Positions 27,862 through 48,331 are shown, numbered from the stretch's first letter. The stretch is 52,725 nt of DNA from an uncultured Clostridia bacterium (GCA_944360025.1 CALVTF010000001.1:1-52725), one strand, 5' to 3'. The notes: generated by a model not told the origin, from the sequence alone. Numbers and translations are program-made.

Positions 27862-29312
27862 TGGATGCTTGGTTTTGGGTATATGTTTGCTCGTGGTTTA
27901 TTAATCTTCTCCTCCTAATTTCGATGATATTCTTAGAAAGAAGAAAGTTTACTTCTATTGTTTGTTGGATGACTGTTTTAACTGTGCTTCCTGTTGTTGG
28001 CTATATCTTTTACATTGTTATGGGGAACGGGCTTTCTTATAGAACTCGTAAAATGATAAACAAACATAAATTATACGAACTTGACTACAACGAAGAAATA
28101 AAAAACATTCTTGCCATGCAGGAAGATTTAAGAGAAAAACTTGTTGAAGATGCAGGAATTATTAAATGCTGTTATAATCTTGGAAGCATTCTTTGTCCCG
28201 GAAACAAAATTGAATTTTATCGCTGGGGAACAGAAAAAATCTCCGCTTTAAAGAGAGATTTATTGAATGCTAAAGAAAGTATCAATATGGAATATTACAT
28301 TTTTGCTGATGACGTGGCTGGTAAGGAAATTATGAATATTCTAATTAAAAAGGCAAAAGAGGGTGTTAAAGTGAAATTTATCTTTGACTCTATCGGTTGT
28401 CTAGGTGCACCAAGACGCTTTTTTAGAAAACTTAAAAAAGCAGGCGGAGAAGTTGCGGAATTTTTTCCACCTTTTGGACATATTCGTATGATTAACCTTA
28501 AAATGAACTATCGTAATCACCGCAAAATTGTGGTTATTGATGGAAAAATTGGCTACACAGGCGGAATGAATATTCGTGATGACCATATTTACGGCACTAA
28601 GAAGAAATGCACACCTTGGAGAGACGCCCATCTTCGTATGGAGGGAAGCGGAGTTTATATTTTGCAAAATATCTTTCTTAACGATTGGCGTTATTGCAAA
28701 AAAGAAGAGAAAAAACCAGAAGAATATGTTGAAGATGGCTATTTTCCAAAAACAAAAGTTGTTGGGGATACAAGTTTGCAAATTATCTCTTCTGGTCCGG
28801 ACAGCGACATGCAGACAATTAAAGATTGTTATATCAAACTTATAACTAATGCTGAACGTTATGTTGTTATTGAGTCACCGTATTTTGTGCCAGATGAAAG
28901 TTTTATGTCGGCTATAAAAATTGCCCTTGCAAGCGGTGTTAAAGTTTGCATAATAATTCCACAAAAACCCGACCACAAGGCTATTTTCCATGTTTCCATT
29001 TCTTATCTTCAAGAATTAGTGCAAATGGGTGCGGACGTTTATCTTTACAAAGGATTTATGCATGCTAAAGCACTTGTTGTAGATGACGATAAAATTTCTA
29101 TTGGTACTTGCAATACTGACAATCGTTCTTTTGCTTTAAACTTTGAAAACACAGTTGTTATGTACTCCAAGGAAATTGCTGGGAATTACATTAAAACTGT
29201 ACAAGAAGATATTAAAAATGCTATAAAAGTTGATAGCCAATACTATAAAAAACGTAGATGGTACACAAAATTTTTACAAGCGGTTTATCGTTTAGGCTCC
29301 CCTATTCTTTAA
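27861..29312 (+). CDS. cls: cardiolipin synthase (phospholipase D superfamily)
   Basis: 483 aa with two N-terminal TM helices and two HKD motifs (HRKIVVIDGKIGYTGGMNI; HAKALVVDDDKISIGTCNTDNRS). Its ATG overlaps the TAA of the giant gene (TAATG, 27859-27863). Confidence 0.93.
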   Translation: MDAWFWVYVCSWFINLLLLISMIFLERRKFTSIVCWMTVLTVLPVVGYIFYIVMGNGLSYRTRKMINKHKLYELDYNEEIKNILAMQEDLREKLVEDAGIIKCCYNLGSILCPGNKIEFYRWGTEKISALKRDLLNAKESINMEYYIFADDVAGKEIMNILIKKAKEGVKVKFIFDSIGCLGAPRRFFRKLKKAGGEVAEFFPPFGHIRMINLKMNYRNHRKIVVIDGKIGYTGGMNIRDDHIYGTKKKCTPWRDAHLRMEGSGVYILQNIFLNDWRYCKKEEKKPEEYVEDGYFPKTKVVGDTSLQIISSGPDSDMQTIKDCYIKLITNAERYVVIESPYFVPDESFMSAIKIALASGVKVCIIIPQKPDHKAIFHVSISYLQELVQMGADVYLYKGFMHAKALVVDDDKISIGTCNTDNRSFALNFENTVVMYSKEIAGNYIKTVQEDIKNAIKVDSQYYKKRRWYTKFLQAVYRLGSPIL

Positions 29313-30067: not shown

Positions 30068-32080
30068 ATGGCAGAAAAAAAACAATCAAAATTTAAAAAA
30101 ATATCAATAGTCTTTTTAATTTTTTTGGTTATCGGCTACATAGCAGGGGCATGTATTTTATATTTTACAAACGACAACAATTATACATTCCTAGATGCTT
30201 TATATCGTGATGGATATGCTTTTGTCGGTCTTGGTGTAGGCTTTTTGTTTGGATTAATTTATATTTACATGGCAACAAGAAAGAAAAGTTCAGGAATGGT
30301 TTATGGAAAAACAACAGGTAAAACCGCAGAGGGCGTGGAAATGGACTTGAATTTCAACGCAAAAATGCTTACTCCAGATGAATTTGGAAAACAAAATGGT
30401 GTTATTTCGACAACATGGGCACAACTACCAAATTTAAAAAAGACGGGTCTTGTAATCCAAAATTCGCTCCGAAATGGAAAATACAATATTACAATGAAGG
30501 ACGAGTTCCACTCAATGGTTATTGGTGCAACTGCTTCTGGTAAAACTTGGATTGTCTTGATTCCTACAATAAGGATTTTAGGACATTCGGCCGAAAAGCC
30601 AGATATGGTCATATCTGACCCAAAGGGTGAGTTATATCAAAAAACTTCCAATATTTTAAGAGAAGAAGGTTACCGTGTTTATAAATATGATTTGAGAGAA
30701 CCTTTCACCTCTTCGCGTTGGAATCCTATGCAACATGCATATGACGTTTATCAAGAAGCAATGAATTTTAAAAACCAAGTAAAAAAATGCACAAATGGTG
30801 CCTCACCTGAAAAATCTGGTTTTAAAACTATTCCAGGAGAAAAATACGGAGCCGAATGGTACGGTTTTAATGGTGTGGCTTATCCTGATATTGACCAACT
30901 TCGAATAGCAGTATCTAGTACAGAAGAAATGTATAAAGATAAGGCTTATGGCGAACTTAAAGAAATTGCTTCCACTTTGGTTCCTAGAAGTCAGGCACAA
31001 GACCCTACATGGGAAGAGGGGGCTCAAGGTTTCTTGTATGGCGTTATGCTTGCCATGCTTGAGGACAGCCAAATTCCAGAACTTGGTATGTCAAGAGAAA
31101 AATTTAATTTTTACAATCTTTATCGTATTTGTATGTATCGTGACCTTGACCCAGACAATCCTTTTGAAACTTTAAAGAAATATTTGCTTCAAGGACGTGA
31201 CGAAACAAAAAGTGAGGTTGCACAATTAACCTCTGGGGTTGTCAACACTGCTCCTAACACTGCTAAATCATATTTCAGTGTGCTCACCGGAAAAATTAAT
31301 TTTATGCAAGACGTTGGTATTTCTTATCTTACTTCTGAAAGTGATATTGATTTCGGCGGATTTACAGACAAACCAACCGTGCTTTACATTTGTATCCCTG
31401 ACGATAAGGAAGAAAGATACACTTTAGCAAACCTTTGTGTTTCACAACTTTATAAGCGACTTGTCGATAAAACAAACACACTGCCAACAAAGAAATTACC
31501 TCGCCATGTTTATTACCTTCTTGATGAGTTTGGTAATATGCCACCGATTCCAAAGTTTGATAGTATGATAACCGTTTCACGTTCAAGAAATATCATTTAT
31601 GAATTATTAATACAATCATATACTCAGTTAGAAACGAAATATGGTAAAGAAGCGGCTGAAACTATTAAAGGTAACTGCAATATTCAAATCTTTATTGGTA
31701 CGGATGATCAAAACACAAGAGATGATTTCTCAAAGCGTTGTGGCGAAGTACAACTTTTGTATGAAGAAGAAAGCAAGACAAAAAATACCAAAAATTCGGA
31801 TGGAAATTCTAAAAATTATTCTGTTCAAAGAACGACAAGACCGCTTATTTCTGCTTATGAACTTGGACAGTTGCCATTCGGCACTGTGGTTGTCAAAGTT
31901 TTCCGTTTGCAACCATGCAAACTTGAACTCACACCAGCATTCAAAACTCCATTTTTCCACGCAAATGACGTAAAACCTGAAGTCGGTGTTATGAAATCAC
32001 TAGATAAAGATAAGGTTTATTACAATATTAAAGATAGAAATAAGAAAATCTTAAAATCTTCTAGTCCGTTTGATTTCTAA
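30068..32080 (+). CDS. type IV secretion coupling protein (VirD4/TraG/TraD family)
   Basis: 670 aa with two N-terminal TM helices, Walker A GATASGKTW, DPKGEL, Walker B YYLLDEFGNMPPIP, and TVSRSRNI...IQSYTQLETKYG...NCNIQIFIG, a layout typical of T4SS-DNA_transf coupling proteins. GAGGGG RBS. Confidence 0.85.
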   Translation: MAEKKQSKFKKISIVFLIFLVIGYIAGACILYFTNDNNYTFLDALYRDGYAFVGLGVGFLFGLIYIYMATRKKSSGMVYGKTTGKTAEGVEMDLNFNAKMLTPDEFGKQNGVISTTWAQLPNLKKTGLVIQNSLRNGKYNITMKDEFHSMVIGATASGKTWIVLIPTIRILGHSAEKPDMVISDPKGELYQKTSNILREEGYRVYKYDLREPFTSSRWNPMQHAYDVYQEAMNFKNQVKKCTNGASPEKSGFKTIPGEKYGAEWYGFNGVAYPDIDQLRIAVSSTEEMYKDKAYGELKEIASTLVPRSQAQDPTWEEGAQGFLYGVMLAMLEDSQIPELGMSREKFNFYNLYRICMYRDLDPDNPFETLKKYLLQGRDETKSEVAQLTSGVVNTAPNTAKSYFSVLTGKINFMQDVGISYLTSESDIDFGGFTDKPTVLYICIPDDKEERYTLANLCVSQLYKRLVDKTNTLPTKKLPRHVYYLLDEFGNMPPIPKFDSMITVSRSRNIIYELLIQSYTQLETKYGKEAAETIKGNCNIQIFIGTDDQNTRDDFSKRCGEVQLLYEEESKTKNTKNSDGNSKNYSVQRTTRPLISAYELGQLPFGTVVVKVFRLQPCKLELTPAFKTPFFHANDVKPEVGVMKSLDKDKVYYNIKDRNKKILKSSSPFDF

Positions 32081-32840: not shown

Positions 32841-33386
32841 ATGATGAAAAACAAAAGTAAAAGTTTCTTCGCATCAATAATTAGCACTGCTGTTTTTGCA
32901 CTTTATATATGTGCTTTAATTTATATTATAGTGGCGGCATGGGTAGGATTTCAAAAAAGTGGGCTTGATGACACTCGCAAAGCGGTGGAAGGCTCACTTT
33001 ATTTAGTGCTTATGGTCGTTATTATTTGTGCTTTTGTTTTATCTCTTATATGCCTAATCCATACCATTAAAAACAGAAATTTATTTATCGGACAAGCCCG
33101 TAAATTAATGTTGTCAACTGTTTTTTTTGATTATTTTGTGGCATTTTTGTTTTTCATATTAAGTGTTTCAGGTGTTGGTGTTCTCGCTGCAGTTTTGTAT
33201 GTTGTTGGATTATTACTTCTTGCTTTGGCAGGAACTTTGTATTTAATAGATTATAATGAAGATATAAAACTTCAAAAAGCAAACCGTAGCAAAATTGATA
33301 ATACGGCAGTACAAGATGCATACTACAAAATTAAAGAGATCATGGACAAAGAAAATGAAGAAAAACATGAGGATAAAAAGGATTAA
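32841..33386 (+). CDS. integral membrane protein (about 4 TM), unknown function
   Basis: 181 aa with four hydrophobic helices and a charged C-terminal tail (KENEEKHEDKKD). Confidence 0.6.
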   Translation: MMKNKSKSFFASIISTAVFALYICALIYIIVAAWVGFQKSGLDDTRKAVEGSLYLVLMVVIICAFVLSLICLIHTIKNRNLFIGQARKLMLSTVFFDYFVAFLFFILSVSGVGVLAAVLYVVGLLLLALAGTLYLIDYNEDIKLQKANRSKIDNTAVQDAYYKIKEIMDKENEEKHEDKKD

Positions 33387-33391
33387 AGAAA

Positions 33392-34237
33392 ATGGAAATC
33401 GGAATTACTATTTTTACAATATTTTTGGTAGCAATTTTTGTTGGTCTTATAATTTTTGCTTTTATTAAAGAAAAAAAGAGTTTATCGAAATATACTACTA
33501 ACCTAATTTTTAAAAACTACAATAAAAAACTCGACAAAGTTTCAAATCTATTTAAAAATGAAAAACTCGACAAACTTTTAACAGAGTGTCATTTAAATAT
33601 TGTCGAAAAAGAAAATCTTTCTGAGAATATGATTTTTGACAACATAAAAACTATAGATAAACTTGAAGATAATTGGGCTCTTTTGAAAAATATTCAAAAA
33701 GAATTTGCTCACCGCGGAAGTGTTGAAGATAGAATTTCTCTTCTCAAAAAACCACTTGAAATAGTGAATGTAGAAAAATACGTTGCCTTTCCAAGTAATA
33801 TTAAACACAAAGCACTTTTAATGTTTAATGAAAAGTTTAACGAGATTAAACTTGATAATGATACAAAAAAAATATTAAGTGGAACTCCATGTTATAAATT
33901 TGGTGACGTGTTTATGTTTTTAGAGAAAAAAATTTTGAAAATTGACATGGAAAATGTCTTTGCGGTGGAATTTCTTGAATATGAAAATATAAATATTAAG
34001 GTTAGCAAAAGTGGTGAAGAGTGGGTAGACTTCGATGGTACTTATGATTTAGAAGAAACTGTTCACAAATTTCCAGATGGGGTGGATAAGGATGACCCAT
34101 ATATAAAAGAACAAGTATTGCAAAAAAAATATGTTTTATCATTTACAAATGGTAGTATGATTTACGACGTAGAACATAAAGAAGTAATAACAGAACTTCA
34201 AGAAAAATATGAAAAGTTGACAATTACATTAAAATAA
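33392..34237 (+). CDS. N-terminally anchored protein (281 aa), unknown function
   Basis: Starts 5 nt after the previous stop. Has an N-terminal TM helix (ITIFTIFLVAIFVGLIIFAFI). No motif recognised. Confidence 0.55.
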   Translation: MEIGITIFTIFLVAIFVGLIIFAFIKEKKSLSKYTTNLIFKNYNKKLDKVSNLFKNEKLDKLLTECHLNIVEKENLSENMIFDNIKTIDKLEDNWALLKNIQKEFAHRGSVEDRISLLKKPLEIVNVEKYVAFPSNIKHKALLMFNEKFNEIKLDNDTKKILSGTPCYKFGDVFMFLEKKILKIDMENVFAVEFLEYENINIKVSKSGEEWVDFDGTYDLEETVHKFPDGVDKDDPYIKEQVLQKKYVLSFTNGSMIYDVEHKEVITELQEKYEKLTITLK

Positions 34238-39140: not shown

Positions 39141-39217
39141 TGGTGGAGATGATCGGATTCGAACCGATGACCCTCTGCTTGCAAGGCAGATGCTCTAGCC
39201 AACTGAGCCACACCCCC
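39141..39217 (-). tRNA. tRNA-Ala (anticodon UGC), CCA encoded
   Basis: Reverse complement is GGGGGTGTGGCTCAGTTGGCTAGAGCATCTGCCTTGCAAGCAGAGGGTCATCGGTTCGAATCCGATCATCTCCACCA. It folds as a cloverleaf with anticodon loop CTTGCAA (TGC), the G3:U70 alanine identity pair, and T-loop GGTTCGAATCC. Confidence 0.95.
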
Positions 39218-39376: not shown

Positions 39377-39577
39377 TTATTTGCAGAAATTGTTGCATCC
39401 GCAGTTAGAGAGTAATAAGAGTAATAAGATTGTTCCACAGTCAACATTGATTCCTTTCATACCGCAACCGCCACAGCAGTTTAAAAGTATGATTAAGAAA
39501 ATGAGTGAGCAGCAATCATTACCGCAGCCGCAATCTCTACCTACGTCACCACAACCTGAGCCTCCAAAAAAGTTCAT
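39377..39577 (-). CDS. 66-aa Cys/Gly-rich hydrophobic peptide, unknown function
   Basis: AGGAGG lies 5 nt upstream of the ATG (reverse complement of 39578-39588). A weak bidirectional hairpin (GGCAT/ATGCC, 39322-39340) flanked by A/T runs lies downstream. 12 Cys in 66 aa, with two Leu/Ile stretches flanked by CG/CC clusters. Confidence 0.7.
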   Translation of the reverse strand: MNFFGGSGCGDVGRDCGCGNDCCSLIFLIILLNCCGGCGMKGINVDCGTILLLLLLSNCGCNNFCK

Positions 39578-39840: not shown

Positions 39841-40422
39841 ATGGAAAAAAATTTATCATTAAAAAGAGCCTTGACAATTTTTGCTTGTATAGCAATGGTT
39901 TTGGTTGCTGGTTTTACACTTGCTGCCTGCGGAGAAACACAAACAAATGATTATATCACACCGGGAACTAACGCATCATTTTCAGGCTCGCCAGACGTTA
40001 AATACAATAATGCTTCAGATTTTACTCTTGTATACAAAGGAAACAATCACTATGAAGCAACAGGTTCGCTTGCCACAATGGATGCTACACAAGCGACAAC
40101 TTGGGGTGGTGTTCAAGAAGGAGCAAAATATTGTGTTTTAAATGTTAAGACAGGAAAAGATGCAACAGGTTATATCGGTTGGAGGAGTGTGGAAGATAAA
40201 GACAAACCTTTTACCGAGGAAGAAGCAACTTCTGACGGTGTAAATGTAAAGAAGACGTCCGCCTCAAACGAGACAAAGAACTATATACTTGCTCTTACTG
40301 ATGGTGTGAATGAAAGATATCCAGATAAACCTATTTGGAGAATACAAATCACTCCAAAAGACTCTACAGAAGAAATCACATACACTATTGATTTTTCTAA
40401 CCTTTTAGGGGAAAACGCTTAA
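39841..40422 (+). CDS. lipoprotein, unknown function
   Basis: Signal peptide with lipobox LAAC (FTLAAC|GETQ). AGGAGGGG RBS. 193 aa. Confidence 0.8.
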   Translation: MEKNLSLKRALTIFACIAMVLVAGFTLAACGETQTNDYITPGTNASFSGSPDVKYNNASDFTLVYKGNNHYEATGSLATMDATQATTWGGVQEGAKYCVLNVKTGKDATGYIGWRSVEDKDKPFTEEEATSDGVNVKKTSASNETKNYILALTDGVNERYPDKPIWRIQITPKDSTEEITYTIDFSNLLGENA

Positions 40423-40614: not shown

Positions 40615-41433
40615 GTGGAAGAGGTAATCAAATTTTCTGGCACGAATGAAAAACTTTTTACTCGCAACATAGTTGAAAATGTGACTGAAAAAACAACTCT
40701 AATTGTTCCAGAAACACATAATGCCATTTTGATTTCTGATGGCGAAATGCTTCAAACTCTTCCAAAAGGAAGATACCTTCTTCGCGATTTGGTAGAAATA
40801 AAAAAAGACCAAAAACTTTCGCTTGAAGTTATTTTTGTGAGCAAGACGGCAAAACTTAAACTTCTTTGGGGTACGCCTAACAAAATCACACTTGAGGACC
40901 CTATTTTAAATGAAACCTATAAAATGGGGATGAGTGGAGATTTTGAAGTTCAAGTAGGGGATCCAAGAAAATGTTTTCTATATCTTGTAGGAGCAGAGGA
41001 TGTTTTGACAGCAGATGCTCTTCAAGACCGCCTTATGAGTAAAGTTGTTTCAATTGTGGAAACAGAAGTAGCAAAATTTGTGGCTGAAAAAAAAGTGCTT
41101 TACTCAAATGTTTATCAATATAAGCAAGAAATTGCCCGAAGAATTGTTCCTATTCTCACTTCATCTTTTTCGTCTAGTTATGGAATAACGGTTTATTCTT
41201 TAAATTTTGCAAATATTATCTTTGATGAGGATGATTTAGAACGGCTCAATTCTAAAAATCGAGGAAGCGCCCAAAAAGCACTCTGTCCAAACTGCGGTAC
41301 GATGCTTGAAGAAAATGCGAAGTTTTGTTATAATTGCGGGACTAAAATTAGCGATAAGAAAATTTGTCCAAAGTGTAGGTCGGAAAATTCAGAAGAGGCC
41401 AAATTTTGCAGTATGTGCGGAACAAAGTTTTAA
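40615..41433 (+). CDS. SPFH/Band-7-like protein (YdjI / COG4260 type) with C-terminal double zinc ribbon
   Basis: GTG start after AAGGAGG (40604-40610). The N-terminal ~215 aa follow the YdjI-type pattern (LIVPETHNAILISDGEMLQTLPKGRYLL...; VIFVSKT...LLWGTPNKITLEDP...; FEVQVGDPRKFL-like). The C-terminus has CPNCG..x..FCYNCG and CPKCR..x..FCSMCG. Confidence 0.7.
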   Translation: MEEVIKFSGTNEKLFTRNIVENVTEKTTLIVPETHNAILISDGEMLQTLPKGRYLLRDLVEIKKDQKLSLEVIFVSKTAKLKLLWGTPNKITLEDPILNETYKMGMSGDFEVQVGDPRKCFLYLVGAEDVLTADALQDRLMSKVVSIVETEVAKFVAEKKVLYSNVYQYKQEIARRIVPILTSSFSSSYGITVYSLNFANIIFDEDDLERLNSKNRGSAQKALCPNCGTMLEENAKFCYNCGTKISDKKICPKCRSENSEEAKFCSMCGTKF

Positions 41434-41442
41434 GGAGGAATT

Positions 41443-41856
41443 ATGATTGTTGCATTTTATATTATTGTTTGTGTCGCAATTGTCGGAGTTTCAATATATT
41501 TTCTTGTCCGAGAAATTCGCTCTTCAAAAAAGGAAGGTGGAGAAGGGAAAGAAGGTCGGTCAGTTTTAACAAATAAACGTCAGATTGAACGTTCGGTGCA
41601 AAATATTGAAAGTATGATTGTGCTTGCTGATGGAAATGACACTTTGACGAATAAGTTGGTTGAACTTAAAGATGAAATACGTTTCTTAAATCCTTCAAAA
41701 AATCCAAAAGTAAAAGCAGTCGATGAGAAAATAGCAAACAAACTTGACGATATCAAAATTGAGATTTCCAAAGACAAAGACTCGGAGGCTATCTTTCGTA
41801 TGATAGAGGAAGTAGAAGGGTATTTGTCTCAACGTACAAAGGAAATAGACGCATAA
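41443..41856 (+). CDS. single-pass membrane protein with predicted helical soluble domain
   Basis: 137 aa with an N-terminal TM helix (IVAFYIIVCVAIVGVSIYFLV), then charged helical sequence. GGAGG RBS, 9 nt after the previous stop. Confidence 0.6.
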   Translation: MIVAFYIIVCVAIVGVSIYFLVREIRSSKKEGGEGKEGRSVLTNKRQIERSVQNIESMIVLADGNDTLTNKLVELKDEIRFLNPSKNPKVKAVDEKIANKLDDIKIEISKDKDSEAIFRMIEEVEGYLSQRTKEIDA

Positions 41857-42203
41857 TGAAAAGAGAACTAAAGGTAAGTGACGGAGTCGGTGAAAATGTT
41901 TTAAAGGAATTAAAACTAGGCTACATAAATTTGGCAGATGGTTTTTTTGACCTTGCACAAACAAACTTTGATTTGGTGATACTTGCAGATCCTAAATGTG
42001 CCGACGCGTTTTGGGGGTTAATGCTTGGCAAATGTCATATTCGCAATGAGGACGTATTGCTTACTAATGCCACCTTATATAAAAATGTGGTTTTCTTGAA
42101 AGAATATCAAAACGCTCTCATCTATGCCGACGATGACCAAAAAGCAATATACAACAATTTACTTTCCGAAATTATAAAGATTAATTCGGGCGAAGAATAT
42201 TAG
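41856..42203 (+). CDS. small TPR-like protein
   Basis: 115 aa. GFFDLAQTNFDLVILADPKCADAFWGLMLGK resembles a TPR unit. The same module recurs after the zinc ribbon of the 1253-aa protein (FQEAVKDFDKILALYPKSHEAYYGRLQAK). TAATG overlap with the upstream gene. Confidence 0.5.
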   Translation: MKRELKVSDGVGENVLKELKLGYINLADGFFDLAQTNFDLVILADPKCADAFWGLMLGKCHIRNEDVLLTNATLYKNVVFLKEYQNALIYADDDQKAIYNNLLSEIIKINSGEEY

Positions 42204-42211
42204 GAGGAGAT

Positions 42212-42823
42212 ATGTGGTGGCCTTTTAAAAGAAATAAATTTAAGAAAATTCAGCGTGAGGATTTGGTAAATTCTATTTGTGAACTTGAAAGACAAGAACG
42301 TACAATAGAGGCTGAAATCTTCCAAATGCAAAAAGAAATTGATGCCCTTTTAGATAAAGGCAAAAAAGAAAAAACAGAAGAACTTAAACTTTTTTATGCC
42401 AAAAAGATTAATCATTTAAAAGAGCAAAAATCAAGCACAATGCAAAAAGGTATGTATCTTTTATATAATATTCGCCTAATGAACAAACTTAAAGATGCGT
42501 ATGACAGTAATGCGTTTTATAAAACTAAAACAAAAGTTCCTCTTTCAGAACTACTTGCCGATCAAAAAGGTTTAGCAAAGTTTTTAAATAAAGCATTAGA
42601 AACTCGAATTGCTTCTGAGGACGTCTTAACAAGTGCTGACGATTTGTTCACAGAAATACAAGGTGCATATGATACCAATGAATCCATTTATGGAATGAAG
42701 AAAGACGATGAAGAACTTTTAACTTCCTTTGAAAAGGAACAACAAATTTTGGACGAGCAATCTCTTTACGAAGAGTCGCAAGTAAATAAAACAAAAAAGA
42801 AAAAAATGAAAATGGAGGAATAA
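42212..42823 (+). CDS. ESCRT-III (Snf7/CHMP)-like protein, paralog A
   Basis: 203 aa. Basic N-terminus MWWPFKRNKFKK, a long predicted helical hairpin (ELERQERTIEAEIFQMQKEIDALLDKGKKEKTEELKLFYAKKINHLKEQ...), and an acidic C-terminal half. AGGAGGAG RBS. Confidence 0.6.
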   Translation: MWWPFKRNKFKKIQREDLVNSICELERQERTIEAEIFQMQKEIDALLDKGKKEKTEELKLFYAKKINHLKEQKSSTMQKGMYLLYNIRLMNKLKDAYDSNAFYKTKTKVPLSELLADQKGLAKFLNKALETRIASEDVLTSADDLFTEIQGAYDTNESIYGMKKDDEELLTSFEKEQQILDEQSLYEESQVNKTKKKKMKMEE

Positions 42824-42826
42824 AAA

Positions 42827-43423
42827 ATGGCTTGGTTTAAAAGTAAAAAACAAAAAGAAATCGAACAAAAAATGCTGGTTAAAAGGACGATAAATTCCAT
42901 GGAAAAACAAATTGCTCGTCTTGACGAACAAAAGAAAGTTTTTGTGGAAGCGGCAAAGAAAGCGAAAGAAAAAGATTTGGAACCTCAATTTAATTTGGCA
43001 CTTTCTGGTTATCGAATGACAGTTCAGCAACAAAAAAGAGCCCAAGAAATGCTCTTAAATTTTGAGATAACCGCTCAAATGCGTGACGTGACCATGATGA
43101 CAACAGAATTTTTGCGTAGTATGAGTTCTATTTCTAAAGAAATGAGTAAACTTGCAGACGCTAAAGAATTTGAAAAAATCCAGGCTCAATTTGAAGAAGC
43201 AATCACAGCAGTAGAAACTCAAACGGACCAAATGGATGCTTTTATGGAAATGAGTCAAGAGTCATTTAGTCAAGCCGGCAAAGCAAAAGATGGCAAAGAC
43301 ATTTCTAACGAGGACTTTGAAAAATATATTATGGAACAAGCAGCAAATGATGAAGCATCAAGCGAAGATATAGACAAGGAAATTGAAAAACTTAGAAAGA
43401 AAATAGAGGAAGAAGCAAAATAA
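42827..43423 (+). CDS. ESCRT-III (Snf7/CHMP2-like) protein, paralog B, with MIM1-like C-terminal helix
   Basis: 198 aa. MAWFKSKKQKEIEQKMLVKRTINSMEKQIARLDEQKKVFVEAAKKAKEKD...RMTVQQQKRAQEMLLNFEITAQMRDVTMMTTEFLRSMSSISKEMSKL...FEKIQAQFEEAITAVETQTDQMDAFME aligns helix-by-helix with my memory of CHMP2A/Vps2. The C-terminus is acidic and ends EDIDKEIEKLRKKIEEEAK. Confidence 0.72.
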   Translation: MAWFKSKKQKEIEQKMLVKRTINSMEKQIARLDEQKKVFVEAAKKAKEKDLEPQFNLALSGYRMTVQQQKRAQEMLLNFEITAQMRDVTMMTTEFLRSMSSISKEMSKLADAKEFEKIQAQFEEAITAVETQTDQMDAFMEMSQESFSQAGKAKDGKDISNEDFEKYIMEQAANDEASSEDIDKEIEKLRKKIEEEAK

Positions 43424-43441
43424 TTTTTCTACGGAGATAAT

Positions 43442-44569
43442 ATGGAAGATATTGAACTTCTAAACAATACCTTTGACCTTTATATGAAAAAGGGGAAGGA
43501 GGCAAAAGAAAAAGGAAATTACGCTCTTGCAAAGCGTAATTTTATGCTTGCTGGCGAGACTATGATGAAGATTGCAAAAGTAAGTCAAGGCAAGTTAAAA
43601 GAAGTAAGACTTAATCGGGCGAAGCGAATTGTCGAACTGTCAGAGCGTATAGGTCTAGAAAAAGAAAAGAAAAAAGAGGAAAAAGGTGAAGATGAAGAGG
43701 ATGAGGTAAAAAAATGGCAACAAGCACAGATTCCTAACATTCATTTTTCGGATGTAGCCGGGCTAGATGACGTTAAAAAAGCAATCAAGATTCGAATGAT
43801 TAATCCAATTCTTTACCCTGATAAGTATAAACTTTACAACAAAAAAACAGGCGGAGGAGTGCTTTTGTATGGACCTCCGGGAACAGGAAAAACCATGATT
43901 GCAAAGGCTATTGCTTGCGAAGTTGGAGCCAAATTTTATGCTGTGAAAGGCTCAGATATTGTTTCCAAATGGGTGGGCGAAAGCGAGCAAAATATCAATT
44001 CTCTTTTTGAAGAAGCAAATAAGCAAGACCGTTCCATTATTTTTATTGATGAAATGGACAGTCTTTTAGGAAAACGTGGACAAGATATTCATAATGACAA
44101 ACGTGTCAATGAATTTTTACAACAAATTGATGGCTTTGCTGGTCGAAACCCTAACCTTTTACTGTTGGGTGCAACCAATAGACCTTGGGATATAGATTCG
44201 GCCGCCACTCGTTCAGGTCGTTTTTCACAAAAGATATACATACCACTTCCTGATGAGAAGGCAAGAAAGTTTATGTTAGAAAAAAATATGAAAAATGTGC
44301 CGGTTTCTAAAAATTTTGATATTGACAAGATTGTAAAACAAACAGAACTTTATAGCGGGGCGGACATAGAAGAACTTTGCGACCGTGCAAAAGACGAGCC
44401 TCTTCTTAAAGCGATTGAAACTGATAGTGTCATAGAGGTAACCAATAAAGATTTTGACAATATCTTAAAAATTTTCCCGCCAAGTGTAACAGAAAGCGAA
44501 CTTAAAAAATTTGCAGATTATAACAATGAAATTGATAGTTTGATTAAAAATAGAAGAAAGAAAAAGTAG
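43442..44569 (+). CDS. Vps4-like AAA ATPase (meiotic clade) with N-terminal MIT-like domain
   Basis: N-terminal ~75 aa form a three-helix MIT-like region (KGKEAKEKGNYALAKRNFMLAGETMMKIAK...RAKRIVELSERI), followed by an acidic linker. Walker A GPPGTGKT (43871-43894), pore loop SKWVGESE, Walker B IIFIDEMD. ATNRPWDIDSAATRSGRFSQKIYIPLPDEKAR compares with Vps4 [25 protein letters not shown]. Confidence 0.82.
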   Translation: MEDIELLNNTFDLYMKKGKEAKEKGNYALAKRNFMLAGETMMKIAKVSQGKLKEVRLNRAKRIVELSERIGLEKEKKKEEKGEDEEDEVKKWQQAQIPNIHFSDVAGLDDVKKAIKIRMINPILYPDKYKLYNKKTGGGVLLYGPPGTGKTMIAKAIACEVGAKFYAVKGSDIVSKWVGESEQNINSLFEEANKQDRSIIFIDEMDSLLGKRGQDIHNDKRVNEFLQQIDGFAGRNPNLLLLGATNRPWDIDSAATRSGRFSQKIYIPLPDEKARKFMLEKNMKNVPVSKNFDIDKIVKQTELYSGADIEELCDRAKDEPLLKAIETDSVIEVTNKDFDNILKIFPPSVTESELKKFADYNNEIDSLIKNRRKKK

Positions 44570-47500
44570 ATGAGAGAGCGAATTTGTAATAATTGCGGAG
44601 GCAAAAAATATAAAGAGATAGGGCAGAATATGGTGAAATGCTTGTTCTGTGGGACTATCTATGTCGATGAATATGCGAACAAGGAAGAAGAGATATTGAT
44701 TGTCCAAGCATATGAAAAAATTCGTGATTTCAAATTTCAAGAGGCAGTAAAAGATTTTGATAAAATATTAGCACTTTATCCAAAATCGCATGAAGCGTAT
44801 TATGGTAGACTTCAGGCTAAAAATAAAGTGATTTATTTCAACAGCAAGGAAGGAAATAAGCGCTATCCATCTTTTTTTGGAAAAGAAATTCCAAACTATT
44901 TTGAAGATGAAGATTTTAAAAAAGCAGTGGAATTTGCACCTAAAGAGATTGCAGAAAGTTACAATGAACAAGCAACACGTGTAGAGAAAATCCGTAATCA
45001 CTTTTTAAATGATGCCACGAAATTTTCTTGCGACGTTGTTTTAAATATTAAAGAAAGAACTTCAAATGCCGAAAAAATAATTTCCGCATTAGAAGAAAAA
45101 AATCTTAAACTCTTTTTAAGAGAAGATATAAAAAAGCAAAAGAAAAATATTGAAGCCTTTACTTTTCAGGCTATAAACACAGCAAAAGTGGAAGTTTTGC
45201 TGGTGGAAAATGTAGACGCGTTGCTAGAACCGAAAATTAGAAATCTTTATCAAAGATTTTTATATCGAATTGCCATAAAAGATAGATTTCCTTCAAGTTT
45301 TGTTGTTGTTTATGATGACGAAAATGTGCCTATAGATGAAATTGAAAAGGCTTTTCCAAACTTAAAAAAATTGTATTCTACAAACGATAACAACTTTTCT
45401 TTTGACCTTGCAACATTTGTGAAAAGTGCAACTGAGAGAAATTACAACGAGCAAATTGGTCTAGAAAAAAGAGAAGTGGAAAGTGCCACTCCAATAAAAA
45501 AAGAAAAAGTGGAGATTGAAGCGGTTGAGCCGACAGAACTAGGGCATTATAACGTTGAGAATGTTCCATTATCTGAGAAAAATAAAGTTAAGTGGATTTT
45601 TTCTAGTATAAAAAATGGTGATTTTCAAACTGCTGAAAAACTTTTGAAGGAAGAAAAAGATAAAAACGAGGCAAGCGGTGAATTATATTTTGCTTCTCTT
45701 CTTTGTGAAAGAAAGATAAAAACTGAGGAAGAGTTTTTCTCAGATATAGAAAATTTTAAAAACAAAGAAGAACTTGAAAATGTTTTAAAATATTCTTCCA
45801 CTGATTTTGCAAATGACTTTGTAAACAAATGGGAACAACTCATTGTTAAAGAAAAGGACGTAGATTATTACTTAGAATATTTGGAGTTTTTGGCACAATA
45901 TAAAAATTCTATGCATGACGAATTTATTAGAGAGGCCGAAAATTTAGCGATTGAAACATTAAATGAGGACTTAATTAATGCCGTTTTAAAATGTTATAAT
46001 CCTACTGACGTAGACAAGTATACAAATTTTTATTTTCAACTTGCACAAGAATCAGGTGATGAAAGTTATTATACAAAGATATTAGAACTTGATGAAGGTC
46101 ATGCTCAAAGTTTATTTGCTATTTTTATGAAGAACTTTGACACTGTGGAAGAAAAACTTTCTTATCGTGATGGAAAAGCGTTAGAGGACGTTTTAAAATA
46201 TTGCGAAAAAGAGCGTCGTAGCGGATTTTTAACAGATTTAATAAATCTTATTTGTGAAGTTTCCTATTATGATATTAAAAAAGCCGAAGAACAATTCGAC
46301 TTCTATCTTTCATATATAAACGATGAAGAGATTTTGCAAAAAACTCTTATAAATTTGGCAACAGATTTGCAAACTAAAGGATTTTTTAATTTAGCAGAAA
46401 AATATCTGACACTAGCGATTAAAAATGATAAAGAAAACGCCGAACTTTATTGGCAACTTATTGCAATAAAAACGCATTGCCATAGCGAAAGTGAACTTTT
46501 AACCACTTCTGTTAAGATTTCAGATATGGAAGATTGGAAAACTCTTTTAAATTTTGCAAGTGACCAACAGGCAGAAAAATATAGCCAAATCGTCGCAAAG
46601 GCGAATATAAGTAGCGCCAAAAAAGTTTTTCGCCGAGAACTTTTAGATAAAAATGTTTTAAAAGAAAAACTTAGAGAATTTCTAATTAGAAATGACAAAG
46701 TTTTAAATGAAGCGGAGGATAAGGCTTTAGTCAAATATTATAGACAACAATTTACCGCTTTTGAGAGTTATTTTGATAAAATAAATAATGCTAGAACTTT
46801 CGAAGAATATGACGAAATCTTCCAAAGAATTTTTGACCGTATCGACATGATGGATTTGACGATTGACACTTCTGTTAATGTTGCCAAGATAAATACCAAA
46901 AAAGATAATTTAGAAGTATTGGAAAAAGAAGCGAAAAAAAGAGATGATAAATACCTCTCAACCATTGAGGAAGAAAGGCGAATAAAAAAACGCAAAGTAG
47001 TTTTATTTTGCTGTCTTCTTCTTGCACCTATGCTTCTTGTTTTATTGTTTTTGATTTTAGTTATTGCCGCTCCTAAGGATATGTATATGGTATTCACACA
47101 GGACGGAGTTATTATTTTTACCATTCTTTCTGTTATTCTAGGACTAGGTTGTCTTATTTACAATGTGATTAAAAAAACAGGCGATAAAAAGTGGAAGGTT
47201 GCAAGGTATTGTATAGTTATAATTGGTTTTGTCAATCTTGCATGCCTGCTTTTTGGATTTTATATCTATCCGCCTGAGATAGAAATCTTGAATGCTAATG
47301 AGTTTAATGCCATTGTTCACAATGCGAGTTTTGTAGATATAAAAATAGAAAATGACATTGATTTGGGGGATATAGGTTGGGCACCTGTGGATTTCTATGG
47401 CGACATAGAAGGAGAAAATCACAGAATTTTCAATATAAATTTCAAAAGCAAGGAAAATTTTTATGGTTTGTTTGATGAATTCGGTGGAAATGTGGATAAC

Positions 47501-48331
47501 TTAACCTTTGAAGTTTTGGAAAATGACTATGAAAATGTCACTCGATTTGGGGTTATTGCTTTAAATAATAATGGAGAAATAAAAAATTGTCATGTGATAC
47601 TTTCTACAAATATTTTGTCCACAACTTCTGATTGTTTGATTGGAGGTGTTGTCGCAAGTAATGGTGCGGGAGAAGTTTCAAATGTAACATTTGAGGGCAA
47701 TTTGAATATAACCTCAAATGGCAATGTTATTGCAGGCGGTCTTATTGGTGAGACTAGAAGCGAGTCGGAAATTAAGGAAAATTCGGTTGATTTTACGGCT
47801 AACTTTACCTTTGAAAATGGGTCCCTTCAATTTGGCGGACTTGTTGGAGAAAATTTGTCGACAATAACGACTTCAAAAGCAAATGTCAACTTTAATATTC
47901 AAGGGAATTTAAGTAATCCTTTAATAGGAGGGCTTGCAGGAAGAAGTAGAAAATCTATCAATAACTCCTATGCAAGCGGAATTTATAATTTGAATTATGT
48001 GAATGCAACAACAGGAGGACTTATTGGTCAATTTTCTAGGCGACATGAAAAATTGGAATATTGTTATCAAAATATTGACTTCCAAAATGTTGGCGAAGTG
48101 ACAGGCGCTTTAGTTGGAAATTTAAGAGAGGGAGAAGTTCGCTCATGTTTTGCTGTTGGTACCATGTCAAATTTGCTTGGAAGTAAGGGCGTTAACGAGG
48201 GTATTGCTCCAACTCCTCAAAATTGTCAAATTTTTGTATCAGCCGATGAAGTTACAAATACATTTGGTTTTTCGACAGAAATTTGGAATTTAGAGGGTAT
48301 TCTTCCAACTCTTATTTGTTTAGAAGGTTAA
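44570..48331 (+). CDS. 1253-aa multidomain protein: N-terminal zinc ribbon, TPR-like/helical cytoplasmic region, 3 TM helices, extracytoplasmic GLUG-motif repeat domain
   Basis: ATG lies directly after the TAG of the ATPase gene. Zinc ribbon CNNCGG..x..CLFCG, then a long helical region. TM helices at roughly nt 46997-47270. The C-terminal ~350 aa carry repeated GLUG-type motifs (LIGGVVASN, IAGGLIGET, QFGGLVGEN, LIGGLAGRS, TTGGLIGQF, VTGALVGNL). Confidence 0.75.
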   Translation: MRERICNNCGGKKYKEIGQNMVKCLFCGTIYVDEYANKEEEILIVQAYEKIRDFKFQEAVKDFDKILALYPKSHEAYYGRLQAKNKVIYFNSKEGNKRYPSFFGKEIPNYFEDEDFKKAVEFAPKEIAESYNEQATRVEKIRNHFLNDATKFSCDVVLNIKERTSNAEKIISALEEKNLKLFLREDIKKQKKNIEAFTFQAINTAKVEVLLVENVDALLEPKIRNLYQRFLYRIAIKDRFPSSFVVVYDDENVPIDEIEKAFPNLKKLYSTNDNNFSFDLATFVKSATERNYNEQIGLEKREVESATPIKKEKVEIEAVEPTELGHYNVENVPLSEKNKVKWIFSSIKNGDFQTAEKLLKEEKDKNEASGELYFASLLCERKIKTEEEFFSDIENFKNKEELENVLKYSSTDFANDFVNKWEQLIVKEKDVDYYLEYLEFLAQYKNSMHDEFIREAENLAIETLNEDLINAVLKCYNPTDVDKYTNFYFQLAQESGDESYYTKILELDEGHAQSLFAIFMKNFDTVEEKLSYRDGKALEDVLKYCEKERRSGFLTDLINLICEVSYYDIKKAEEQFDFYLSYINDEEILQKTLINLATDLQTKGFFNLAEKYLTLAIKNDKENAELYWQLIAIKTHCHSESELLTTSVKISDMEDWKTLLNFASDQQAEKYSQIVAKANISSAKKVFRRELLDKNVLKEKLREFLIRNDKVLNEAEDKALVKYYRQQFTAFESYFDKINNARTFEEYDEIFQRIFDRIDMMDLTIDTSVNVAKINTKKDNLEVLEKEAKKRDDKYLSTIEEERRIKKRKVVLFCCLLLAPMLLVLLFLILVIAAPKDMYMVFTQDGVIIFTILSVILGLGCLIYNVIKKTGDKKWKVARYCIVIIGFVNLACLLFGFYIYPPEIEILNANEFNAIVHNASFVDIKIENDIDLGDIGWAPVDFYGDIEGENHRIFNINFKSKENFYGLFDEFGGNVDNLTFEVLENDYENVTRFGVIALNNNGEIKNCHVILSTNILSTTSDCLIGGVVASNGAGEVSNVTFEGNLNITSNGNVIAGGLIGETRSESEIKENSVDFTANFTFENGSLQFGGLVGENLSTITTSKANVNFNIQGNLSNPLIGGLAGRSRKSINNSYASGIYNLNYVNATTGGLIGQFSRRHEKLEYCYQNIDFQNVGEVTGALVGNLREGEVRSCFAVGTMSNLLGSKGVNEGIAPTPQNCQIFVSADEVTNTFGFSTEIWNLEGILPTLICLEG

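Follow-up and report, generated by a model that had tools for sequence, protein, structure and literature searches.

Does a gut bacterium of the Clostridia carry, on its own chromosome, a membrane-remodelling polymer of the ESCRT-III type together with an ATPase that could turn it over? This question is raised by a stretch of 52,725 nucleotides from an uncultured Clostridia bacterium (GCA_944360025.1 CALVTF010000001.1:1-52725; hereafter the window, meaning the whole stretch), in which the genes for two small helical proteins, here called A and B, are followed directly by the gene for an AAA ATPase. The original prediction, made from the sequence alone, took A and B to be ESCRT-III-like paralogues. 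Their genes lie in a run of seven on the plus strand (40615-48331), in which neighbours overlap or stand no more than 18 nt apart. The order is an SPFH/zinc-ribbon protein, a 137-aa transmembrane (TM) protein, a 115-aa helical protein, A, B, the ATPase and a 1253-aa protein; the A-B spacer is 3 nt and the B-ATPase spacer 18 nt. We find that B is, as judged from family profiles and predicted fold, a Snf7/CHMP-type ESCRT-III homologue, and that A is probably a second member that has diverged strongly. The most likely product of the seven-gene operon core is a bacterial membrane-remodelling machine of the ESCRT-III type. We infer this function from the homology and predicted fold of B, the conserved motifs and gene order, and the intact motifs of the ATPase.

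The three central genes are as follows.

42212-42823, plus strand: protein A, 203 aa, starting MWWPFKRNKFKK..., a probable, highly divergent ESCRT-III-like paralogue.
42827-43423, plus strand: protein B, 198 aa, starting MAWFKSKKQKE, a Snf7/CHMP-type ESCRT-III homologue by profile and model, belonging to a divergent unannotated bacterial family.
43442-44569, plus strand: ATPase, 375 aa, an N-terminal domain (about 95 extra residues) and a single AAA cassette.

The open reading frames (ORFs) of A and B lie where they had been predicted, as does the tail of B at nt 43361-43420; we confirmed these positions directly, and independent gene callers also predicted both ORFs on contigs of other assemblies.

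Protein B belongs, by profile and predicted fold, to the Snf7/CHMP branch

Searched alone, B gave no significant match in Pfam, NCBIfam or PDB. The single-sequence matches of A and B in these databases (bacHORMA, DUF4942, "protein A" repeats and the UVRAG coiled coil) were dismissed as composition-driven noise. Neither protein matches singly, and the observation therefore gains significance only at the level of family profiles. A homologue search (E<=1e-3) placed B in a family of 304 clusters at 50% identity, from which we took 83 diverse members, 20-47% identical to B, as alignment A1. The best PDB match of the A1 profile was human CHMP2A (7zcg_B, E=7.5e-7), aligned over about 140 residues (profile positions 8-149, chain residues 5-142). 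Weaker matches followed to CHMP1B, Vps24, CHMP3, CdvB, Heimdall (Asgard) ESCRT-IIIB and CHMP1A, and PspA and Vipp1 chains were absent from this search even at E<=10. When the 83 relatives were scanned singly against Pfam, 25 matched Snf7 (PF03357; best 9.6e-7) and 3 matched the runner-up family; PspA_IM30 was not among the families matched.

We modelled B with AlphaFold2, using A1 as the alignment. The model has a mean predicted local distance difference test (pLDDT) score of 85.7 and consists of four long helices, at residues 7-48, 52-107, 112-152 and 161-197. The top Foldseek matches were almost purely ESCRT-III proteins: CHMP1B, CHMP2A (probability 0.97, TM-score 0.66), CdvB, Vipp1 and Asgard ESCRT-IIIB. 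Charge is split as in ESCRT-III, with net +6 in alpha1 and net -13 in residues 112-198, and two residues of the hairpin, N78 and D87, are nearly invariant across the family. The features of B are listed below.

42827-42844, plus strand: putative membrane-binding alpha0, MAWFKS; family consensus M..FKSK..KE, conserved in alignments A1 and A2.
42845-43147, plus strand: predicted hairpin alpha1/alpha2-3 (helices 7-48 and 52-107; pLDDT 88-96), with a basic alpha1.
43046-43087, plus strand: conserved family signature EMLLNFEITAQMRD, within the hairpin.
43160-43282, plus strand: alpha4 (helix 112-152 of the AlphaFold2 model), acidic, net -6.
43298-43339, plus strand: candidate alpha5, DISNEDFEKYIMEQ, a helix in the model; family consensus I.D.EI..LI (A1 and A2).
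43367-43420, plus strand: C-terminal MIM1-like amphipathic helix DIDKEIEKLRKKIEEEAK (pLDDT 86-92), a family motif.

Besides the silence of B when searched alone, several points weigh against this assignment. The CHMP2A match of the family profile is composition-biased (bias 23.3 of 32 bits), designed helical repeat proteins reach 3e-4 in the same search, and the Foldseek E-values are not significant (>=0.19). Such Foldseek values are usual for elongated helical proteins. Because the CHMP2A score is biased in this way, the case rests on the ESCRT-III-specific cluster of matches, the independent Pfam matches and the full-length colinearity. Together, these profile and model results place B as a Snf7/CHMP-type ESCRT-III homologue and not as a member of the PspA/Vipp1 group.

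The original prediction had expected Snf7/CHMP matches to come ahead of PspA/Vipp1 for B, as they did (CHMP2A at 7.5e-7 and Snf7 in 25/83, PspA/Vipp1 in none). It had also proposed a likeness to CHMP2A, which is corroborated by the profile alignment. Of its two aligned blocks, the second (FEKIQ... against LPQIQ...) keeps the register of the hidden Markov model alignment, and the first is displaced by ~7-8 residues, about two helical turns. The alpha1-alpha2 hairpin that it anticipated is predicted with high confidence (pLDDT 88-96), and the basic/aromatic N-termini that it pointed out are conserved across both families, as MWPF.K.K in A and M..FKSK in B.

A conserved MIM1-like helix ends protein B

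MIM1 motifs lie at the C-terminus of the subunit and follow the pattern (D/E)xxLxxRLxxL(K/R). The extreme C-terminus of the B family is a conserved amphipathic helix preceded by an acidic linker, and the last 20 residues of the window protein are SEDIDKEIEKLRKKIEEEAK (nt 43361-43420). Under a stricter test, 59/83 B-family sequences carry hydrophobic residues at positions 0/+4/+7. We aligned the 70 scorable tails, for which this hydrophobic spacing was itself the selection criterion, and obtained the consensus D(-3)-x-[E/D]-I(0)-[D/E]-K-K(+3)-L(+4)-x-x-L(+7)-x-K-K-L(+11). Among these tails, D is found at -3 in 31/70, E or D at -1 in 45/70, K or R at +3 in 35/70, K or R at +8 in 20/70, and L or I at +11 in 37/70. 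The motif persists in the family down to 25% identity.

The tail of the window protein reads S-E-D-I-D-K-E-I-E-K-L-R. It has I, I and L at 0/+4/+7 and R at +8, with Ser at -3 and E and D at -2 and -1. At +3 it has Glu where MIM1 has Arg (Arg/Lys), and this substitution speaks against a true MIM1. The predicted MIM1 likeness was thus borne out in the conserved amphipathic C-terminal helix and its spacing, but not at the Arg position. The family consensus agrees with MIM1 at most of the defining positions, and "MIM1-like" is a fair description.

The gene module recurs in close and distant Firmicutes

We examined 80 loci from species-representative genomes, fetched with a narrower alignment (A3) and all belonging to a Christensenellales-like clade. 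These genomes are metagenome-assembled Clostridia labelled Caccovivens, Coproplasma, Christensenellaceae and similar. The core order, SPFH protein, TM protein, A, B and ATPase, is kept in the 80 species genomes as B identity falls from 97% to 53%. Counted gene by gene, the ATPase is syntenic in 80/80 loci, the 137-aa TM protein in 77/80 and the SPFH protein in 76/80.

Distant homologues of B, 26-36% identical, come from other uncultured Firmicutes. A B-like gene and an AAA ATPase gene are adjacent in 7/7 of the distant loci examined, usually with an SPFH gene; Band_7 or Band_7_1 adjoins the B-like genes in L081, L083, L090 and L091. The neighbourhoods that bear on the text below are these.

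L081: Band_7_1, 97-aa and 203-aa proteins, with an FHA-kinase and a PP2C upstream.
L083: Band_7 and a 309-aa protein.
L084: an S49 peptidase and a kinase.
L085 and L086: two unambiguous B-family paralogues each, in tandem ahead of the ATPase.
L090: three B-family units.

In L085 and L086, the tail motif and an N-terminus of the form M.LFKSK belong exclusively to the paralogue nearest the ATPase; its partner has a Gly/Ser-rich tail. Tandem paralogues with the tail motif confined to the copy next to the ATPase would fit a two-subunit heteropolymer in which one subunit docks the ATPase, and lend such an arrangement indirect support from sequence. The proteins encoded upstream of the B-like genes in L081 and L083 have no detectable relation to A, and match the B family weakly at best.

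In several distant members, the B-family domain forms the N-terminal part of a larger protein, joined to an FtsK/SpoIIIE translocase or to a RuvB-like AAA with or without a NERD nuclease. Examples are L090:6001-7863 (P0299) and L091:6001-8403 (P0317), as well as P0309, P0322, P0323, P0348 and P0369. In both L090 and L091 the fusion gene lies directly upstream of genes for Band_7_1, a 344-aa protein, a B-like protein and an AAA ATPase. The FtsK and RuvB-NERD fusions suggest ESCRT-III-like polymers that recruit DNA-handling enzymes. Genes for Ser/Thr kinases (with an FHA domain in L081) and for a PP2C phosphatase flank distant modules (L081:1089-3429, L084:6918-8207). On a spore-former-like contig (L086:7001-10991), a tandem B-family pair and an AAA ATPase are encoded between plsY and spoIVA.

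Protein A is a probable, strongly diverged paralogue

Protein A has 499 homologues, all unannotated. Its N-terminus is conserved among 28 diverse orthologues as MWPF.(K/R).K(F/Y).K(L/I).RE, N86 is invariant in the family, and alignment A4 shows further invariant columns at I159, Y160, G161, L170, F173 and E174. Its features are these.

42212-42253, plus strand: putative membrane-binding alpha0 MWWPFKRNKFKKIQ, aromatic/basic, net +5.
42254-42505, plus strand: predicted helical hairpin (helices 15-52 and 56-98; pLDDT 72-94), including GMYLLYNIRLMNKLKDA, which hhalign aligns with the most conserved motif of B.
42686-42694, plus strand: invariant IYG, just before the following motif.
42704-42733, plus strand: acidic-hydrophobic short motif DDEELLTSFE, family consensus DDxLLxMFE, set by hhalign opposite the D.EI..LI of B.

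A direct comparison of A with B by BLASTP was not significant. Aligned as families with hhalign, the two are colinear over their full length (163-165 columns, P 0.0009-0.003, probability 11-23%). The native alignment scored 25.1 over 165 columns, compared with 13.7 for a reversed control and at most 19.8, over <=63 columns, for 60 column- or block-shuffled controls. It places GMYLLYNIRLMNKLKD of A over the signature EMLLNFEITAQMKD of B, with the conserved Asn and Asp coinciding. The 137-aa TM protein and the 115-aa protein were also tried as extra ESCRT-III-like copies and rejected, with hhalign P values of 0.06-0.45 over short stretches. An AlphaFold2 model of A, made from 62 sequences down to 42% identity, has a mean pLDDT of 64 and a confident hairpin. 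About 30 of its 50 best PDB fold matches come from the ESCRT-III superfamily, among them CHMP3, ESCRT-IIIB, CdvB2 (probability 0.93, TM-score ~0.45), Vipp1 and PspA.

These observations could also be read to mean that only B is an ESCRT-III protein and that A, a helical protein unrelated to it, fills the upstream slot as an adaptor or regulator, with a function like that of CdvA, Vta1 or a YdjH-type partner. Neither of the A-family profiles, A4 and A5, found an ESCRT-III match in PDB, the C-terminal half of the model is of low confidence, and the fold matches are non-significant (best E 0.17), all of which count against a place for A in the ESCRT-III family. The low hhalign probability, the unrelated proteins in the same slot of L081 and L083, and the lack of the canonical ESCRT-III charge asymmetry, which is much less clear in A than in B, point the same way. 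Nevertheless, the colinear family alignment beats all 61 controls, the hairpin is confidently modelled with best fold matches mostly in the ESCRT-III superfamily, and in L085, L086 and L090 the equivalent or a neighbouring slot holds unambiguous B-family paralogues. We therefore regard an unrelated adaptor as rather unlikely, and A as probably a strongly diverged ESCRT-III-like paralogue on the strength of the family alignment and the model. What had been claimed of A stands as far as the modelled hairpin and the weak profile-profile match go, but finds no ESCRT-III match at the sequence level. The acidic tail ascribed to both proteins is evident in B (net -13 in residues 112-198); in A the charge asymmetry is much less clear.

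The ATPase resembles Vps4/CdvC in architecture and context

Pfam matched AAA (5.1e-42) and AAA_lid_3 in the ATPase. The best NCBIfam model was archaeal CdvC, aligned with residues 5-362 of 375 at 213 bits, which is far below the 650-bit equivalog cut-off. Catalytic and substrate-handling motifs were read from the sequence, and the enzyme is apparently active, to judge from these intact catalytic motifs.

43454-43651, plus strand: MIT-like N-terminal helical domain, residues ~5-70, weakly supported by profile matches to MIT.
43871-43894, plus strand: Walker A, GPPGTGKT.
43964-43987, plus strand: pore loop 1, SKWVGESE.
44036-44059, plus strand: Walker B, IIFIDEMD.
44168-44185, plus strand: sensor 1, GATNRP.
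44201-44254, plus strand: second region of homology (SRH), AATRSGRFSQKIYIPLPD, with the Arg-finger region intact.

A profile built from the N-terminal 100 residues of 29 ATPase orthologues matched the MIT domain of chitin synthase 1 best in PDB (2mpk, E=0.0027). Next came five VPS4A/B chains, with E-values of 0.13-1.3, and 6/11 of its matches contain MIT. Among the same 29 N-domains scanned against Pfam, MIT was the commonest family (4/29, best 2.2e-4). MIT domains are thus the sole consistent matches of the N-domain, a weakly supported assignment at the sequence level. The N-domain motif LY..F..YY..G..A...GD...A.R.L..AAE.L..LA is retained in distant loci. Vps4_C passes its threshold for the ATPases beside the distant B homologues at L083 and L084 (23.2 and 25.4 bits).

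The window ATPase itself fits Vps4 less closely. It has no Pfam MIT match, its Vps4_C score (17.8 bits) is below the 21.3 cut-off, its C-terminal 105 residues match p97 D2 at 2.5e-14 as against 1.3e-4 for CdvC and ~1e-4 for fidgetin-like 1/katanin, and a search with the whole protein is likewise headed by CDC48. The KW pore loop is of a kind that we take to be Vps4-like, and the RxGRF form of the SRH of one that we take to be CDC48-like. The AAA core and SRH are nearer to the CDC48 type, and we therefore call the ATPase Vps4-like in architecture and context only. With a core nearer to CDC48 D2 by sequence, it is not filed in the Vps4/CdvC family. The MIT-like domain that had been proposed for this gene is weakly supported by the consistent N-domain matches of the family and the full-length CdvC alignment, but not by a Pfam match in the window protein.

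From the same data one could propose a CDC48-like unfoldase that acts on another substrate encoded by the operon, for instance the large membrane protein or assemblies of the SPFH protein, in which case the tail of B would be a generic amphipathic helix that takes no part in MIT-MIM docking. The p97/CDC48-like core and lid, the RxGRF SRH, the missing Pfam MIT match, the missing MIM1 Arg and the commonness of heptad-like spacing in helices would all suit such an enzyme. It would not account for the adjacency of a B-like gene and the ATPase in every locus examined, even when other partners differ, or for a tail motif that sits at the extreme C-terminus past an acidic linker, is conserved to 25% identity and is confined to the ATPase-proximal paralogue. 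MIT domains, moreover, are the only consistent matches of the N-domain. We consider a CDC48-like unfoldase with another substrate unlikely, and favour an ATPase that would act on the polymer.

Operon partners and genomic setting

Four other proteins are encoded in the operon core, and a further ORF lies just before it.

39841-40422: ORF of 193 aa, also found upstream of the module in many close relatives.
40615-41433, plus strand: SPFH protein, first gene of the core module; soluble, of the YdjI type, with Pfam Band_7_1 and two C-terminal zinc ribbons.
41443-41856, plus strand: 137-aa protein and candidate membrane anchor; by hydropathy scan, residues 1-26 are a single TM helix at the N-terminus, and the cytoplasmic part is helical.
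41856-42203, plus strand: 115-aa helical protein with no Pfam match, related to a module of the large downstream protein.
44570-48331, plus strand: 1253-aa envelope-spanning protein; an N-terminal zinc ribbon and a long TPR-like helical region in the cytoplasm, then three TM helices and, outside the cell, a C-terminal region that carries a GLUG motif.

The SPFH protein matched Band_7_1 (5.6e-13), Zn_Ribbon_1 (1.7e-16) and DZR (3.8e-11) in Pfam and has four CxxC motifs, at residues 224, 238, 251 and 265; a hydropathy scan found no TM helix in it. The 137-aa protein has no family match in Pfam or NCBIfam, and resembles neither the A nor the B profile. For the 1253-aa protein, whose start directly abuts the ATPase stop codon, a scan for TM helices and CxxC motifs placed the TM helices at residues ~810-900 (nt 46988-47272), and Pfam gave Glug (4.5e-6) and weak TPR matches. 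Its gene is usually adjacent in the 80 loci and, in more distant species, lies between B and the ATPase, so that its order is variable. By phmmer, the 115-aa and 1253-aa proteins match a single ORF with an identical start in nine of these loci (L053, L060, L066, L067, L068, L070, L071, L072 and L076). This relationship in more distant species points to the splitting or joining of genes within the operon.

The remainder of the window is ordinary chromosome, encoding MraW, a PASTA-domain penicillin-binding protein, an aminoacyl-tRNA synthetase, NrdD/NrdG, dUTPase and ABC transporters. GC content is ~33%. The nearest genomes are uncultured gut Clostridia near Candidatus Caccovivens. Because of these housekeeping flanks and the stable synteny, an origin of the operon from a mobile element or prophage was rejected.

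Could the module be a conflict or defence system, for example one that mounts an abortive attack on membrane or DNA during phage infection, and not a housekeeping remodelling machine? The fusions of distant B-family members to FtsK/SpoIIIE or to RuvB-like AAA and NERD nuclease domains beside the module, the kinase, phosphatase and protease genes next to some loci, and a moderate similarity of the ATPase to the IetA/IteA defence ATPases are what such a system might display. Yet PADLOC gave no meaningful match besides the generic AAA domain, and no nuclease or toxin domain is found in the window operon. Unlike typical defence islands, moreover, the locus keeps a fixed position among housekeeping genes (nrdDG, dut and ABC transporters) in >50 species. 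We consider a defensive role quite improbable. Least probable is a place for B (and A) in the PspA/Vipp1 branch as a classical phage-shock-type stress coat, which the SPFH/zinc-ribbon partner, a type known for B. subtilis PspA, and the Vipp1 and PspA structures among the fold matches would favour, but which is contradicted by the lack of PspA/Vipp1 chains at E<=10 in a profile search that returned seven ESCRT-III proteins, and by Pfam scans of the 83 relatives that found Snf7 in 25 and PspA_IM30 in none.

Other genes of the window, outside the operon core, deserve brief mention. A single giant ORF of 4732 aa (13663-27861, plus strand) is followed by a PLD-type, cardiolipin-synthase-like gene (27861-29312, plus strand) that overlaps its stop codon by 1 nt. 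A gene for a VirD4/TraG-type type IV coupling protein (T4SS-DNA_transf, TraG-D_C; 30068-32080, plus strand) stands among housekeeping genes, and small ORFs without a family match (32841-34237) come after it. Just upstream of the operon region, on the opposite strand, are a solitary tRNA-Ala (TGC) gene (39141-39217, minus strand) and a Cys/Gly-rich ORF of 66 aa with a hydrophobic core (39377-39577, minus strand; MNFFGGSGCGDVGRDCGCGNDCCSLIFLIILLNCCGGCG...), which is gene-called on other assemblies (L087-L089) and has no NCBIfam match.

A model for the proposed operon-encoded machine

If the operon core encodes an ESCRT-III-type machine, B would polymerise at the inner face of the membrane, which its aromatic/basic N-terminus and basic alpha1 may contact. 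The helical hairpin would be the polymerisation element, and the acidic C-terminal half would end in the MIM1-like helix. Protein A, the probable second subunit, would co-polymerise with B and would itself be devoid of the tail motif. The ATPase, of hexameric type, could then dock on the tail of B through its MIT-like N-domain, and its KW pore could thread or extract subunits, leading to turnover, constriction or disassembly of the polymer, as Vps4/CdvC does in eukaryotes and archaea. The SPFH/zinc-ribbon, single-pass and TPR-TM-GLUG proteins may recruit or position the polymer at the cytoplasmic membrane, in analogy to the recruitment of PspA by YdjGHI in Bacillus subtilis. The physiological role might be membrane repair or maintenance, or membrane fission.

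A bolder proposal goes further. Here, a complete ESCRT-III/Vps4-type machine would be stably inherited in a broad set of Bacillota, comprising a Snf7-type heteropolymer with a MIM-bearing subunit recognised by a MIT-AAA disassemblase and, in some lineages, fusion to FtsK/SpoIIIE. Such a machine might go beyond stress coating and carry out true membrane fission, for example in the last step of division or in a sporulation-type fission with DNA clearance. We hold this extended version only tentatively and think it doubtful. Were it true, the coupling of ESCRT-III to a dedicated ATPase would not be limited to archaea and eukaryotes.

The arrangement is of wider interest, in that a clade common in human and animal guts encodes side by side a Snf7-type subunit, what is probably its second subunit, and an AAA ATPase with a MIT-like domain. 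The module recurs in other uncultured Firmicutes, and the family comprises ~300 clusters at 50% identity. If docking between the MIT-like domain and the tail of B proves true, the operon would provide a simple bacterial system for ATP-driven ESCRT-III turnover, and would bear on whether the partnership of ESCRT-III with its ATPase predates archaea or spread by gene transfer. It would also tie SPFH scaffolds to Snf7-type polymers, a connection already suggested for the ESCRT systems of early archaea. A further hint, of a link between the polymer and DNA handling at membranes, comes from the fusions to FtsK and to RuvB-NERD.

Comparison with known systems

Among ESCRT-III proteins, the CHMP2A/Vps2 type is the best match of the B family, with the same length, helix order and charge asymmetry, an N-terminal aromatic/basic motif and a terminal helix with MIM1 spacing. 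The pairing of B with a second subunit that has no strong tail motif is like that of Vps2/Vps24. The differences are the bacterial host, an identity to CHMP2A of ~12% in the fold alignment, the position of B alone under every Pfam threshold, and the replacement of the MIM1 Arg by Glu. The operon partners are also different, being SPFH/zinc-ribbon and TPR-TM proteins and not ESCRT-I/II or CdvA. The ATPase shares with Vps4/CdvC its domain order, its size (375 aa, as CdvC), the KW pore loop, ESCRT-III gene neighbours and a full-length alignment with CdvC. It departs from them in its score (213 vs 650 bits), a lid and C-terminus nearer to CDC48/p97 D2, a CDC48-like Gly in the SRH, weak MIT and Vps4_C matches, and a length too short for the beta-domain.

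In the PspA-YdjGHI (SamGHI) system of B. subtilis, small membrane proteins and an ESCRT-III-superfamily protein are likewise encoded together with a soluble SPFH protein, which is of the Band_7_1 type and has zinc-binding motifs at its C-terminus. There, YdjI, an SPFH protein with a zinc finger, is needed to bring PspA to the membrane (PMC8581546). The operon described here differs in having a Snf7-type polymer in place of PspA, and two subunits (the second a probable one) and a dedicated MIT-AAA ATPase that are missing from the Bacillus system. We also compared the archaeal 'Meth_adaptin' ESCRT loci (Makarova et al. 2024, PMC10936438): adaptin-appendage, GOLD and ProX were not detected in the window operon, and those hosts are archaea, whereas the present one is a bacterium. 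Some of the archaeal ESCRT systems described in that study have a kinase/FHA association, which the kinase neighbours in L081 and L084 recall.

Another bacterial case is that of the VPS4-like AAA+ ATPases partnered by a TPR-6TM protein (Ravi et al. 2024, PMC11237479), in which, as here, a Vps4-like ATPase lies beside a large TPR-plus-TM protein. These ATPases are reported to have been transferred to five bacterial phyla, Firmicutes not among them, with snf7 displaced by the TPR-6TM protein; in the present operon, in contrast, the ESCRT-III genes are present. The same authors noted occasional bacterial Snf7 homologues (PMC11237479). According to Makarova et al. (2024; PMC10936438), ESCRT components can be identified in archaea and not in bacteria. 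In a review of 2025, an ATPase like Vps4 "appears absent in bacteria", so that the regulation of bacterial ESCRT-III-like polymers is left open (PMC7619361). In the literature searched we found no description of a Firmicutes operon that combines a Snf7-type protein, a Vps4/MIT-AAA ATPase and an SPFH protein, which is not proof that none has been published. Set beside these systems, the parts of the operon are of known kinds, and it is their combination in a bacterium, together with the divergent unannotated family to which B belongs, that appears to be new.

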